A model generated the notes under the pieces. It saw only the letters and a program-made list of their open reading frames with translations. It made no database searches and had not been told where the DNA came from. Made by a program: the position numbers and the translations under genes. DNA of 64,000 nt from an uncultured Candidatus Saccharibacteria bacterium (lineage in GTDB: Bacteria; Patescibacteriota; Minisyncoccia; Phycocordibacterales; PALSA-1337): NCBI GenBank assembly GCA_964529025.1, contig CAZGUZ010000004.1, positions 4,805 to 68,804 of the forward strand, in the 5' to 3' direction. Positions 820 to 50,391 of the stretch are shown in pieces; within the stretch, counting starts at the first letter, position 1; each line of letters opens with the position of its first letter.

Positions 820-1480
820 GCGCGCACTGGGCGGGTGGGGCAAGCACAAAGAGTTACCACGAACACCGCCGAAGCCACAGAGCGAACACGAAGCAACACC
901 GAGCAGGCATCGTGAGCGGAGCGAGCGACCAGTGAGAGGTGCTTGCGAAGTGCTTGCGAAGTGTGAGCGGACTACCGAACTACCACAGAACGCGGAGACG
1001 GGAGCGCCTCGGGCCGACGCAAACGACGGAGAAAAGGCGGGCGTAAAACTGGCAAAAATGCTAAACTACACTTATAAGCCTTTTTGGAGGAGTGAAGCGG
1101 CGGCGGCAAAACCAAAAATTTCCTTCCTTTCAAATGTTCCGCTTCGCGGCGGGGGGTGTGGGGGGAGCCGCAAATAAAAATGATAGGAAATTTTTGGGTT
1201 TTGCCCCGCGCGAGCTTGTCGAGCGCGGCCGAGGCGCAAGTATCATTCGTCAAAATCCTGCGGATTTTGCCCGAAATACATTCGAACTTCGTCCAATACA
1301 CACCGCAATGATCAGAGAAGACGGCTTAATGCCGTCTGAGCTGAGCATTAACGCGCGAGAAAGTGAGATTCGAAAGCCGGAGCGCGACGGCGCGAGGCGG
1401 GGTCGCAGGCCGAACCAGTAGGTGAGGACCTGTGACCGAATCTCCCTCTCTCCGCCGTGACAATAAAGTATCAGAGTTTA
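820..1480. repeat. GC-rich non-coding region holding two copies (E0 about 880-1000; E1 about 1340-1480) of a repeated GC-rich element family
   Basis: No protein-like ORF on either strand; GC far above flanks. E1 shares gtgagattcgaaagccggagcgcgacRgcgcgaggcgggg...gtgaccRaatc with the copy at 2195-2300. E0 (gagcggagcgagcgaccagtgagaggtgcttgcgaag) resembles the copy after tRNA-Tyr at about 36060-36110. Confidence 0.5.
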
Positions 1481-2194: not shown

Positions 2195-2300
2195 AGTAGG
2201 TGTTAAATACGAGAAGGTGAGATTCGAAAGCCGGAGCGCGACAGCGCGAGGCGGGGCCGCGGGCGAATGCACCAGCGCAAGGCTCGTGACCAAATCCTCC
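2195..2300. repeat. copy E2 of the GC-rich repeated element
   Basis: gagaaggtgagattcgaaagccggagcgcgacagcgcgaggcggggccgc...cgtgaccaaatcctcctct is nearly identical over about 60 nt to 1355-1420 and shares the gtgaccRaatc tail. Confidence 0.5.
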
Positions 2301-2326
2301 TCTTTAGTGTATGTAGAATTGGTATA

Positions 2327-26949: not shown

Positions 26950-26999
26950 TTGATAGAAAATATACCTTAAAACTTGATTTTGAGCAATGCTTGAGTGAC

Positions 27000-27140
27000 T
27001 GTGCTAGGGGAATTGAATGGGTGAATCGGTCACGCGTTAAAATTGCTACACAATTTTACGCTCGACCCCGCCTCCTGTGCACCGGTTCGCTACGCTCACA
27101 TCGGTGCTACAGTCCGGCTTTCGATTCCCGCCTCGGGCAC
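27000..27140 (-). repeat. copy E3 of the GC-rich repeated element, between tRNA-Leu(TAA) and tRNA-Lys on the tRNA strand
   Basis: Read on the minus strand: gtgcccgaggcgggaatcgaa-AGCCGGA-ctgtagcaccgatgtgagcgtagcgaaccggtgcacaggaggcggggtcgagcg...cgtgaccgattcaccc. The first 20 nt are a perfect inverted copy of the 3' end of tRNA-Leu(TAA). Confidence 0.5.
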
Positions 27141-27173
27141 TTAAATAAGCGCTTTCGCGCTTATAAAATACTG

Positions 27174-27255
27174 TGCCCGAGGCGGGAATCGAACCCGCAC
27201 GCCGTGAGGCCGCCGATTTTAAGTCGACTACGTATACCAGTTCCGTCACTCGGGC
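27174..27255 (-). tRNA. tRNA-Leu (anticodon TAA)
   Basis: Reverse complement GCCCGAGTGACGGAACTGGTATACGTAGTCGACTTAAAATCGGC...GCGGGTTCGATTCCCGCCTCGGGCA; long variable arm. Confidence 0.8.
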
Positions 27256-35922: not shown

Positions 35923-36008
35923 GCGCAGGTGGTAGAGTGGTCAATTACAACAGACTGTAAATCTGTCGCCTTCGGGCTACGGGGGTTCAAATCCCTCCCT
36001 GCGCACCA
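35923..36008 (+). tRNA. tRNA-Tyr (anticodon GTA), CCA encoded
   Basis: GCGCAGGTGGTAGAGTGGTCAATTACAACAGACTGTAAATCTGTCGCCTTCGGGCTACGGGGGTTCAAATCCCTCCCTGCGCACCA. Confidence 0.85.
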
Positions 36009-36012
36009 ATTA

Positions 36013-36036
36013 AAAAACCGCCCCAAGGCGGTTTTT
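36013..36036 (+). terminator. terminator hairpin aaaaaccgccccaaggcggttttt
   Basis: Stem accgcc/ggcggt with a T-run, directly after tRNA-Tyr. Confidence 0.6.
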
Positions 36037-36037
36037 A

Positions 36038-36210
36038 AGTGCGCAGGGAGGGATTTGAAAGACGGAACGAGCGCAGGCGAGCGAGTCGGGTGAGAATGTG
36101 TAGCATTCGCAAGACTCATTGAGCTCGAGTACTCGAGGGCCAATGAGTGGACAGACCCTGTAAGGGTCGCAGAAACTTTCAGCAGAAAATTATCTGTGAC
36201 CAAATCCTTG
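36038..36210 (+). repeat. copy E4 of the GC-rich repeated element; first 21 nt are a perfect inverted copy of the tRNA-Tyr 3' end
   Basis: gtgcgcagggagggatttgaa-AGACGGA-acgagcgcaggcgagcgagtcgggtgagaatgtgtagcattcgcaag...ctgtgaccaaatcc. The reverse complement of nt 36038-36058 equals ttcaaatccctccctgcgcac of the tRNA. Confidence 0.5.
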
Positions 36211-48823: not shown

Positions 48824-50101
48824 CTAGGGAACTCGAATTCGCTTGAGGAGAGGTGAAATATGCACTGCAATATCGTAACTTAGTGTCTTTGCTTCACGAG
48901 CAATTGAATAGAGAGAGTTCTGGTGCATAAAATCTTCTCCGCTCATGACACAAACTTCATCACCTTCTTTAATAATCATAATTTGCGAAGCTAAAGTAAT
49001 ATCAATTGCAGTAATGTTCATGCTTACTCTTCCAATGATTGGGCAATAGATTTCATTAATACGAACGTTGCCATTATTAGATAATGCTCGAGGAATACCT
49101 TCGTTGTATCCAAGGGGGATTAGGGCAATTAAGCGGTCGCGCGGAGCAATGTATGTCATATTGTAACCGACACTTTCTCCAGCTTTTACTTTTTTTATAC
49201 CATAGAGCTTTGCATATACAGACATAACTAATTTAAGAGGAACAATGTCGTCGACAGTTGCACCAATGGTAAGGCCAAACATACCACCGCCAATACGTAC
49301 AACATTGGCATGTGCTTGATTTGCATAATAGGTTCCACCTGTATTACTGATATGTGTGTATTTGAGTTGCGGAGCAAAAGGCGAGAGTTCTTGTACTGCA
49401 TTATTCCATGTCGTGATTTGTTCGAGAGATTTTGTAGGATCAGCAGAATCAGAATCTGCAAAGTGTGAAGCAAAACCGTGGACGTGTATTTTTGCCTTCG
49501 GACAGACTTCCAAAAGTTCTTTGAGATCAGTAAATTCGTTCGGCTTTATGCCTTGTCGATTCATTCCTGTATCAATTTTGATGTGAATAGAAACAGGTAC
49601 GGGCTCGAATACTCGAGTTGGTTCGCCTTTGTACTCAATGCGGTACTTAATGAGGTCGCGGAAATGATCCATACTTGAAATCATGTATGAACAATGCGGA
49701 ATACTGTCATAGTGTATGGTGCGTGCCTCGGTGTAGCCGGCAATAAGGATAGGGAGGTGTGTGCTTTGTGCGCGCAAAGCTTGTGCTTCAAAAAAAGAAT
49801 CAACAACAAAGAATGGGATTTTGTCGGCAAAATTCTCGGTGAGAATTTGCGCAACAAGGGTTGCACCATGCCCGTATGCATTGCTTTTGAGTACAGGAGC
49901 AATTTTGAGCGGTTTGTCCGCCTGCGCTAAAAGTGCTGACCACGCAGAAAAATTGTGCTTAAGGGCAGATTCAGAAATGCGTACGGTAATAAGGGGAGGA
50001 AACTTGCCAGCTCGTGCCGAGCGCAGTTTATAAAATATTTGTCGCAAGTTACGACCTACGGTGTACAACCAATGTGTTATAAAAAACGGCATTTTATACA
50101 T
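48824..50101 (-). CDS. alr: alanine racemase with about 35-aa N-terminal extension encoded inside a tandem repeat
   Basis: PLP-Lys motif APVLKSNAYGHG. The ORF continues to 50200, but the first in-frame Met codons (MYKMPFF) lie at about 50101/50092. Confidence 0.75.
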   Translation of the reverse strand: MYKMPFFITHWLYTVGRNLRQIFYKLRSARAGKFPPLITVRISESALKHNFSAWSALLAQADKPLKIAPVLKSNAYGHGATLVAQILTENFADKIPFFVVDSFFEAQALRAQSTHLPILIAGYTEARTIHYDSIPHCSYMISSMDHFRDLIKYRIEYKGEPTRVFEPVPVSIHIKIDTGMNRQGIKPNEFTDLKELLEVCPKAKIHVHGFASHFADSDSADPTKSLEQITTWNNAVQELSPFAPQLKYTHISNTGGTYYANQAHANVVRIGGGMFGLTIGATVDDIVPLKLVMSVYAKLYGIKKVKAGESVGYNMTYIAPRDRLIALIPLGYNEGIPRALSNNGNVRINEIYCPIIGRVSMNITAIDITLASQIMIIKEGDEVCVMSGEDFMHQNSLYSIAREAKTLSYDIAVHISPLLKRIRVP

Positions 50102-50391
50102 AGAGAGAGTATACAAGAAGTGGGGGGATGTTGCTATTGATGTGTGGGGTTTTAGTGTTGGCAGGTTAGGGTATTGTGAGGGGATCGAGCTACCCACCAC
50201 GTGCCGAACGTAGTTTATAAAATATTTGTCGCAAGTTACGACCTACGGTGTACAACCAATGTGTTATAAAAAACGGCATTTTATACATAGAGAGAGTATA
50301 CAAGAAGTGGGGGGATGTTGCTATTGATGTGTGGGGTTTTAGTGTTGGCAGGTTAGGGTATTGTGAGGGGATCGAGCTACCCACCACGTGC
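50010..50391. repeat. 187-bp tandem direct duplication (two units, 2 mismatches) covering the alr 5' end/promoter; a third partial copy of about 40 nt at about 51120-51160
   Basis: Unit gtgccgaRcgYagtttataaaatatttgtcgcaag...gatcgagctacccaccac occurs at 50014-50200 and 50201-50387. The motif cattttataYatagagaRWKYatacaagaaKg recurs at about 51120-51160. Confidence 0.8.

Follow-up and report, generated by a model that had tools for sequence, protein, structure and literature searches.

A structured element carrying an inverted copy of the tRNA 3' end recurs downstream of tRNA genes in Patescibacteria

Introduction

Why would a tRNA gene be followed, a few dozen nucleotides past its end, by a perfect inverted copy of that end? 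The question is raised by tRNA-Leu(TAA) in a 64,000-nt stretch (the window) of contig CAZGUZ010000004.1 from an uncultured Candidatus Saccharibacteria bacterium. An earlier reading of the window (the original prediction) had noted a 20-nt inverted copy, with a terminator stem between it and the tRNA, had assigned the copy to the start of a repeat element, E3, and had suggested that cotranscription with the downstream tRNA-Lys would place the copy in the tRNA precursor, where it could sequester the 3' half of the tRNA. Here, we report that the inverted copy is the 5' arm of a conserved, non-coding, structured element of roughly 110 to 190 nt, and we argue that this is, on balance, probably a small non-autonomous element inserted at the 3' ends of tRNA genes. 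The setting is of interest, since bacteria of the candidate phyla radiation have tiny genomes with few recognized mobile elements, and in the relatives sampled here roughly one tRNA gene in five to ten bears such an appendage.

Inverted copies of tRNA 3' ends in the window

The inverted copy behind tRNA-Leu(TAA) proved to be 21 nt long, one more than had been described, fully complementary to the last 21 nt of the gene and separated from them by 32 nt (Table 1). The copied segment, a, runs from U54 in the T loop through the 3' strands of the T stem and the acceptor stem to A73 and C74; its inverted copy is denoted a'. As had been claimed, tRNA-Tyr(GTA) shows the same arrangement, again with 21 nt at 100% and 32 nt between the arms. 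The number of perfect inverted repeats of at least 20 nt within 100 nt that chance would place in 64 kb is 64000 × 100 × 4^-20, or about 6 × 10^-6; the window holds two, and both are at tRNA 3' ends. Nothing comparable was found at the other five tRNA genes, where matches did not exceed 7 nt.

Each spacer contains a hairpin, which forms the apex of the long a:a' hairpin in folds of the precursor. Behind tRNA-Leu, the + strand reads taagcgc-tttc-gcgctta at 27146-27163, which on the tRNA strand gives a 7-bp stem, UAAGCGC-GAAA-GCGCUUA, followed by just UUU; because the U run is so short and a simple terminator scan did not list the signal, we regard it as terminator-like and as a weak terminator at best. 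Behind tRNA-Tyr, AAAAAACCGCC-CCAA-GGCGGUUUUU forms a 5- to 6-bp GC stem followed by U5 and by eye resembles a canonical terminator. It too is missing from the scan output, so the label "terminator" reflects, for both spacers, a reading by eye.

A conserved core adjoins each inverted copy

Directly 3' of each inverted copy lies the sequence (U/C)GAAAG(C/A)CGGA, which occurs four times in the window; three of these copies also have GAGGCGGGG(U/C)CG. Single-sequence folds arrange these segments into a three-way junction, P1-GAAA-P2-GG-P3. P1 is the closing helix, and the end of the inverted copy is its 5' strand. P2 consists of GCC/GGC, a GGA/GA internal loop, and a variable hairpin, while P3, GGUCGC...GUGACC with a variable hairpin, passes without a linker into the 3' strand of P1. 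A search of the window with a covariance model, R1 (described below), returned four copies, E1 to E4, and nothing else, which bears out the assignment of the inverted copy to the start of E3.

In E3, the 5' strand of P1 is followed by GAAAGCCGGA, a long P2 hairpin, GAGGCGGGGUCG, the P3 hairpin, GUGAC, and the 3' strand of P1. Its 3' arm, CGAUUCACCCAUUCAAUUCCCCUAGCACAG, is degenerate: the match to the tRNA end is left only in CGAUUC and in a final GCACAG, with a longest run of 6 and an identity of 9/18, or 13/18 if gaps are allowed. The core of E4 opens with GAAAGACGGA, continues into a P2 with GAC/GUC in place of GCC/GGC, a compensatory change, and is then interrupted by an inserted domain of ~90 nt between P2 and P3, which splits the element into two R1 matches. 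A standard P3 (GGUCGC...GUGACC) follows, and then AAAUCC and a decayed 3' arm. E1 and E2 have no adjoining tRNA, and their arms are still legible as a tRNA-Ser-like 3' end and its complement.

Table 1. Coordinates of the tRNA genes, arms, and element copies in the window
Feature	Position	Strand	Evidence
E1, orphan copy	1351-1462	+	R1, 89.1 bits; fold z -5.4
E2, orphan copy, 79% identical to E1	2205-2310	+	R1, 64.9 bits; direct repeat
E3, whole element	27140 to ~26999	-	Inverted copy and R1
E3, degenerate 3' arm	26999-27028	-	Sequence, tRNA comparison
E3, core	27020-27130	-	R1, 63.3 bits, E 6 × 10^-20; fold z -3.8
a' of tRNA-Leu, 5' arm of E3, perfect 21-nt inverted copy	27120-27140	-	Repeat finder
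tRNA-Leu spacer, 32 nt, with hairpin	27141-27172	-	Sequence
Segment a of tRNA-Leu(TAA), last 21 nt	27173-27193	-	Repeat finder
tRNA-Leu(TAA)	27173-27255	-	ARAGORN; Rfam tRNA, 53.4 bits
tRNA-Tyr(GTA)	35923-36008	+	ARAGORN, Rfam; segment a at 35986-36006
tRNA-Tyr spacer, 32 nt, with hairpin	36007-36038	+	Sequence
a' of tRNA-Tyr, 5' arm of E4, perfect 21-nt inverted copy	36039-36059	+	Repeat finder
E4, whole element	36039 to ~36209	+	Inverted copy and R1
E4, core	36049-36209	+	R1, partial matches at 36049-36118 (19.8 bits) and 36142-36209 (36.2 bits)

Against Rfam 15, only tRNAs in the window pass the gathering threshold, and the element matches no family; permissive scans of all four element regions (E up to 10) gave chance-level matches only, such as miRNA precursors on the hairpin. 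Keyword searches of the literature found no description of such a tRNA-end element, and a search with the conserved sequence strings led to unrelated papers only, apparently through chance matches to primers.

Structural selection on the core

The core is a folded single strand under structural selection. The test used an alignment of 50 pattern-selected sequences (see below), from which R1 was also built. In the proposed structure, 90.7% of cells are paired, versus 71% in column shuffles (none of 500 reached the observed value) and 35 to 42% when the partners are slid. Changes on both sides were found for 20 of the 30 pairs. P2 and P3 hold 83 G·U pairs versus 5 A·C pairs, and the basal pair of P3 is G·U in 48 of 50 sequences; therefore, one strand folds, namely the tRNA-sense strand. 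In loci gathered without the pattern, P2a shows covariation (C:G to A:U or G:C), and variation in the junction strands is only mild.

Distribution and anatomy of the family

We searched contigs representing one genome per species with the pattern GAAAGCCGGA-N(8-38)-GAGGCGGGGYC. At least 119 stretches matched, nearly all of them from Patescibacteria (Saccharibacteria, Paceibacteria/Parcubacteria, WWE3, and others); the matches listed also include some Elusimicrobia and a few evident chance matches, and viral contigs gave none. A same-strand tRNA gene lies within 300 nt upstream in 92 of the 122 matches listed, mostly ending 25 to 90 nt before the core, and at least 15 amino acid specificities are represented among these tRNAs. 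About 75% of the loci stand 10 to 130 nt behind such a gene.

The layout shared by the family is the tRNA gene, a spacer (usually with a terminator-like hairpin, seen by eye as a palindrome and a T run), a' as the inverted copy of tRNA positions 56 to 73, the core, and a direct copy of positions 56 to 73. This direct copy forms the 3' arm, which follows GUGAC and begins exactly at C56. It is identical to the tRNA at 18/18 positions in 36 of 75 elements, with exact runs mostly of 18 to 23 nt, and in four cases has a CCA where the tRNA gene has none. Complementarity of the 5' arm to the tRNA starts at position 56 and extends outward, mostly for 7 to 11 nt without interruption and for up to 19 to 21 nt in a few elements; the 21-nt arms of E3 and E4 mark the extreme of this range. 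Often the 5' arm is followed by a 9- to 10-bp hairpin with the loop CUGC and then by the complement of the acceptor 3' strand. Exact direct copies of tRNA positions 56 to 71 were located 120 to 300 nt downstream in 54 of 65 cases, and in one (L091) at kilobase distance.

Several loci depart from this layout. Behind a mini-element in L091 (2312-4090) is an ordinary islet of two open reading frames (ORFs), bracketed by a third copy of the tRNA-Ser 3' end at a distance of 1.7 kb downstream. Tandem arrays occur in L006, L023, L088, and L141, and their older outer arms are sometimes of a different tRNA type: in L141 (3440-3780, - strand), two elements follow tRNA-Trp, the outer one without a 5' arm of its own and with a 3' arm that corresponds to the end of another tRNA-Trp sequence type. 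In L005, L032, L059, and L062, the 3' arm is interrupted right after the copied T-loop CGA by a small extra insertion (AAGUGUACUCAC-like). Behind tRNA-Lys(CTT) in five different genomes (L195, L124, L178, L170, and L140), the T loop does not contribute to the closing helix, which is built from the extreme tRNA 3' end and the trailer (CACAAAG-like), and GA replaces GAAA as the first junction strand.

Presence and absence at orthologous tRNA genes

We also examined a sample chosen independently of the pattern, namely 80 metagenome loci around relatives of IF2 (45 to 54% protein identity), amounting to 785 kb with 237 tRNAs. R1 matched 28 times, and 25 of these matches lie 12 to 160 nt after a same-strand tRNA. 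Exact inverted copies of at least 10 nt of a tRNA's own 3' end were present within 150 nt downstream at 44 of 219 tRNAs (at least 12 nt in 27, at least 18 nt in 6), as compared to 0 of 219 in the upstream control. This control, together with the expectation calculated above, rules out a chance origin of the inverted copies, and the coincidence that the original prediction had allowed for fails as an explanation, given that the arrangement recurs at hundreds of tRNA genes in related bacteria, these tRNAs and the loci found by pattern among them.

The cluster IF2-RbfA-tRNA-Cys-Leu(TAA)-Lys(CTT)-Leu(TAG) is conserved among the sampled loci. The position of the element within it varies by genome (after Cys, Leu(TAA), Lys, or Leu(TAG)), and many compact clusters carry none; the window carries one after Leu(TAA) only. 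A targeted three-way alignment of L135, L137, and L131 allowed filled and empty sites to be compared. In the empty site (L135), 16 nt separate tRNA-Cys from tRNA-Leu, while L137 and L131 have an identical tRNA-Cys with two different element variants behind it. In L131, the 3' arm is followed by ~15 nt and then by tRNA-Leu, and the repeat reaches a few nucleotides past the tRNA end. The 3' arm of L131 thus sits at the original tRNA end, and insertion therefore duplicated roughly 18 to 24 bp of target. Orthologous tRNA genes differ in whether they have the element, and where it is present its direct copy occupies the site of the original tRNA end.

Cores that are 94 to 97% identical were found behind different tRNAs (Met/Val, Val/Ser, Leu/Ser, and Val/Gly), each with arms fitting its own tRNA; close core pairs are nonetheless enriched for the same tRNA. 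A Pfam scan of 71 neighboring genes on the downstream side revealed no shared family. They are diverse housekeeping genes, and among the 25 families listed for them there is no recombinase, transposase, integrase, or reverse transcriptase.

Other conserved cores lie between inverted and direct copies of the tRNA end in L121, L123, L136, L163, L176, and L193 and also in L023 and L088. One such type has a GUAC...CUGUAA motif, and some of these elements stand in tandem with the R1 type. Since several of the inverted-copy tRNAs lack the R1 core and have other cores instead, the logic of the arms is common to more than one core type.

The arms match the local tRNA

Where the 3' arm differs from the tRNA (positions 57 to 66), the base in the 5' arm is complementary to the tRNA in 104 cases, to the 3' arm in 13, and to neither in 22. 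Mismatches of the 5' arm show no wobble bias, whether counted against the tRNA (17 G·U versus 24 A·C) or against the 3' arm (36 versus 43). Where the tRNA stems contain G·U pairs, the arm holds the Watson-Crick partner of the 3'-strand base in 13 cases and repeats the 5'-strand base in 4; in tRNA-Ala of L074, for example, the arm has an A opposite U70, so that G3·U70 is replaced by A-U. Because of the lack of wobble bias and the outcome at G·U positions, the arms appear to be copies of the 3' strand of the local tRNA end that were templated as complementary DNA sequence. By the same comparisons, they look unlike an RNA helix maintained by compensatory change and unlike a copy of the tRNA 5' half.

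Two other origins were considered and rejected. Duplication of the tRNA 5' half as the source of a' is ruled out by the count at G·U positions. A snap-back copy of a' as the source of the 3' arm is ruled out as well, since at interruptions or mismatches of a' the 3' arm still fits the tRNA perfectly.

The identity of the 3' arm and the completeness of the 5' arm are anticorrelated (Spearman rho = -0.51, P = 8 × 10^-6), which we take as the signal of an age series. At one end, elements such as L090 and L099 combine a perfect direct copy with an inverted arm of 6 nt and lack a spacer hairpin; E3 and E4 are the converse, with a perfect 21-nt inverted arm and a decayed direct copy. The innermost six positions of P1 correspond to R57 A58 N59 N60 C61 C62, which are semi-conserved in all tRNAs; a short arm would therefore need one or two changes to fit another tRNA.

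Conservation in a close relative

L025, a locus from an uncultured Candidatus Saccharibacteria metagenome-assembled genome, is 85% identical to the window across 2.7 kb that include the E3 locus. E3 itself is ~95% identical, all 21 nt of a' are unchanged (21/21), and one P2 pair has changed on both sides, a compensatory replacement. At 26950-26995 (- strand), between E3 and tRNA-Lys, the window has the sequence TTGCTC-17 nt-TATATT, which is 100% conserved in L025. It is probably the promoter of the tRNA-Lys/tRNA-Leu(TAG) pair; the full conservation of this stretch leads us to predict that tRNA-Lys has a promoter of its own. In L025 (1990-2090), CCCGGCACCGGGCCCCC takes the place of CCCGCCTCGGGCAC at the 3' end of tRNA-Leu(TAA), with masked Ns after it, which may reflect a misassembly at the palindrome or a further insertion.

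Other repeats in the window

The stretch directly upstream of E1 (760-1350) is G+C rich and has no convincing ORF or Rfam match. It contains an imperfect 44-nt inverted repeat (1100-1143/1166-1209) and could be a decayed array of elements or another RNA. A perfect 300-nt direct repeat (22831-23130/23398-23697), with copies 567 nt apart, covers the starts of two adjacent ORFs and represents either a recent duplication or an assembly artifact. At 49992-50365, a 187-nt unit is repeated twice in tandem with 95% identity.

Discussion

The original prediction had seen the inverted copy and overlooked the three-way-junction core, the direct copy on the 3' side, and the insertion-like presence and absence among orthologous tRNA genes. 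With these added, the reading that we favor, and hold to be somewhat more probable than its denial, is that the inverted copy belongs to a small, non-coding, non-autonomous element inserted at the 3' end of the tRNA gene. Such an element would be, or would have been, mobile and would home to the segment of tRNA genes from the T loop to the 3' end; its insertion would duplicate 18 to 24 bp of the tRNA target and would supply a terminator for the tRNA. As the target-complementary part, a' might recognize the tRNA end, in the manner of a guide beside a scaffold, or might pair with the tRNA-end copy to form, on a folded single strand, a duplex site for recombination, as in folded att (attachment) sites; the acting strand could be RNA or single-stranded DNA (ssDNA). 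After insertion, the direct copy would decay, and a' would stay complementary or be corrected to be so, through selection on the element or through correction, templated by the hairpin, against the tRNA copy that is under selection. Decay of the direct copy alongside a maintained a' would account for the perfect a' and degenerate 3' arm of E3 and E4. We are a good deal less sure, and regard as an open conjecture with the balance against it, that the elements constitute an undescribed non-coding mobile class: a structured RNA or ssDNA module that would be guided to tRNA ends by a target-complementary arm, duplicate its target, be re-aimable, recruit a host enzyme through the three-way junction or act by the chemistry of the core, and occur with several unrelated cores.

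Several points weigh against mobility. It is inferred only from distribution and from one comparison of filled and empty sites, because no transposase, integrase, or reverse transcriptase is linked to the element among the 71 downstream neighbors and no excised or circular form was seen. Sporadic presence could also be explained by an old origin with easy loss via the flanking direct repeats. For the way in which an inverted copy comes to fit each new tRNA, the reading offers only a conjecture, namely a short, 6-nt arm to the semi-conserved T-loop/T-stem sequence that would be lengthened later. Orphan copies (E1 and E2) exist without an adjoining tRNA. In the pattern-selected loci, parts of the core (P2a and parts of the junction) were fixed by the pattern itself, and the unselected set comprises only 28 matches to R1.

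The original prediction pointed instead to action in cis. On such a reading, a' in a read-through precursor would pair with the 3' half of the tRNA into a hairpin of ~30 bp, with the core as an accessory RNA domain; the outcome might be blocked folding, a mark for double-strand-specific cleavage, or reinforced termination. Sequestration is thermodynamically feasible, but only in read-through transcripts: in the minimum-free-energy folds of both the Leu and the Tyr precursors, the a:a' hairpin replaces the acceptor and T arms (z about -8). It would also fit with the retention of tRNA complementarity in the 5' arm while the 3' arm decays, with the constant location of the element on the same strand immediately downstream, and with the presence of such a copy at about 20% of the tRNAs in related genomes. 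However, a terminator-like hairpin lies ahead of a', and by the time a' is transcribed the tRNA is already whole and able to fold. In addition, tRNA-Lys, downstream of E3, has a conserved promoter-like site of its own. Only some orthologous tRNAs have an element, and many compact clusters do without; the element must therefore be dispensable. The a':tRNA mismatches lack the G·U bias that is evident in P2 and P3, the orphans E1 and E2 have no tRNA to act on, and the direct copy and the conserved core would go unexplained. Because of the intervening hairpin, the order of transcription, the dispensability, and the absence of wobble bias, we consider a regulatory trailer unlikely.

Two further explanations fit worse than insertion of a non-autonomous element. 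An independent small RNA gene, with a tRNA-like closing helix, the core in the place of a "T loop," and handling by RNase P, RNase Z, the CCA-adding enzyme, and a synthetase, would make sense of the structural selection on the core, of the four 3' arms with an added CCA, and of the many loci in which a' and a perfect 3' arm would form a 12- to 16-bp minihelix ending at position 73, often with a' split by the 9- to 10-bp hairpin exactly at the boundary between acceptor and T stem. Yet decay of the 3' arm is not compensated in a', elements with two complete arms are rare, and G·U pairs of the tRNA, including G3·U70 of tRNA-Ala in L074, become A-U; the a' of E3 and E4 extends its pairing to positions 73 and 74 and leaves no free NCCA tail, and no promoter is evident between the spacer hairpin and a'. 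We rate such a gene as less likely again than a trailer acting in cis. Still lower, and in our view very improbable, are scars of integrase-borne islands or prophages that entered the T loop and lost their interior, leaving attL, attR, and some flank. Integration into tRNA genes is classically recognized by direct repeats of a 3' segment of the tRNA (PMC9897764), and a classical islet with a third copy of the tRNA-Ser end does exist in L091; however, sizes are tightly confined to 120 to 300 nt, the core is conserved and covaries across a superphylum, the 71 downstream neighbors include no integrase remnants, and a scar would hold no inverted copy of the att segment.

If the element is mobile, tRNA genes would be used in a new way as landing sites, without a protein encoded by the element, and the conserved core would be a candidate new functional RNA, either a protein-recruiting scaffold or a ribozyme. 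If it acts on the tRNA transcript, tRNAs across a large section of the bacterial tree would be subject to an unrecognized layer of control. Metagenome assemblies can also break at perfect hairpins and duplicated tRNA ends, and tRNA annotation can be misled by them.

Relation to known systems

Several known identities were tried and set aside. A retroviral-type primer-binding site does not apply, since a' pairs with positions 54 to 74 only and the AAG 5' of a' mismatches CCA, even at tRNA-Tyr, whose gene encodes CCA. A tRNA-like or minihelix mimic is contradicted by the conversion of G·U to Watson-Crick pairs (13 versus 4), by the pairing of positions 73 and 74, and by the uncompensated 3' arm. 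The idea of a group I intron within the T loop was dropped, as no Rfam intron model matches and the core, at ~65 to 110 nt, is too small; moreover, the element ends in GUGAC and its target is duplicated, and the published group I introns of Patescibacteria tRNAs are placed at position 35/36 (PMC13011429). For the hammerhead, twister, hairpin, and hatchet ribozymes, no Rfam model scores, and the order of the conserved strands is unfit for a hammerhead.

Other systems resemble the element in part. Guide-plus-scaffold RNAs (IscB omega-RNA/HEARO, IS110 bridge RNA, the internal guide sequence of group I introns, and the exon-binding sites of group II introns) likewise carry a target-complementary segment directly 5' of a structured scaffold, and here the complementarity is retained while the flanking copy decays. 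They differ in that the present element has no adjacent effector gene, no Rfam match (none that is HEARO-like), and no wobble bias and is known from its sequence alone; its neighbors are housekeeping genes rather than those of a transposon effector. The primer-binding site of long-terminal-repeat retroelements is similar in its 18 to 21 nt of complementarity to the 3' part of a tRNA with a boundary in the T loop, whereas the complementarity here ends at C74 without CCA and no reverse transcriptase is linked. Like miniature inverted-repeat transposable elements and the Correia, RPE, and REP/BIME intergenic repeats, the elements are short, non-coding, multicopy, hairpin forming, and non-autonomous; unlike them, they have arms that copy the target rather than element-specific terminal repeats, a target duplication of 18 to 24 bp, a strict location, and a core that covaries like that of a functional RNA.

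The closest known geometry appears to be that of the folded attP of CTXphi-type elements (CTXphi/IMEX) and of integron attC sites, in which tyrosine recombinases of the Xer or IntI type recombine the folded strand; the analogy is one of inverted copies, folded spacer, and strand bias only. In both cases, two inverted copies of a site lie ~60 to 150 nt apart and would fold on one strand, the strand specificity being indicated here by the tolerance of G·T(U) pairs, and the integrated form would comprise the site, a body, the inverted site, a spacer, and the site. The target here is a tRNA end rather than dif or attI, however; the arms differ between tRNAs, and the spacer is conserved in sequence and contains a three-way junction.

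Among known processes, integrase-mediated insertion into tRNA genes is biologically the closest. Integrating elements leave tRNA fragments behind, and direct repeats of the tRNA 3' segment mark integration into tRNA genes (PMC9897764). As with tRNA-targeting integrative elements, which use sublocations in the T loop and at the 3' end and duplicate the 3' segment as attL and attR, the insert lies 3' of an intact tRNA gene, is bracketed by a direct repeat from the T loop to the end and a few nucleotides beyond (as in the 36 of 75 elements with full identity and in the comparison of filled and empty sites), forms tandem arrays, and varies in presence between relatives. In contrast to them, the insert is only ~120 to 300 bp long, holds no integrase or any gene, with no recombinase among the families listed for the 71 downstream neighbors, and has a conserved core that folds as well as a further copy of the att segment in inverted orientation. 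Duplication of the 3' segment on insertion into a tRNA gene is already known, and what would set the present mini-element apart is its combination with an inverted copy and a folded core.

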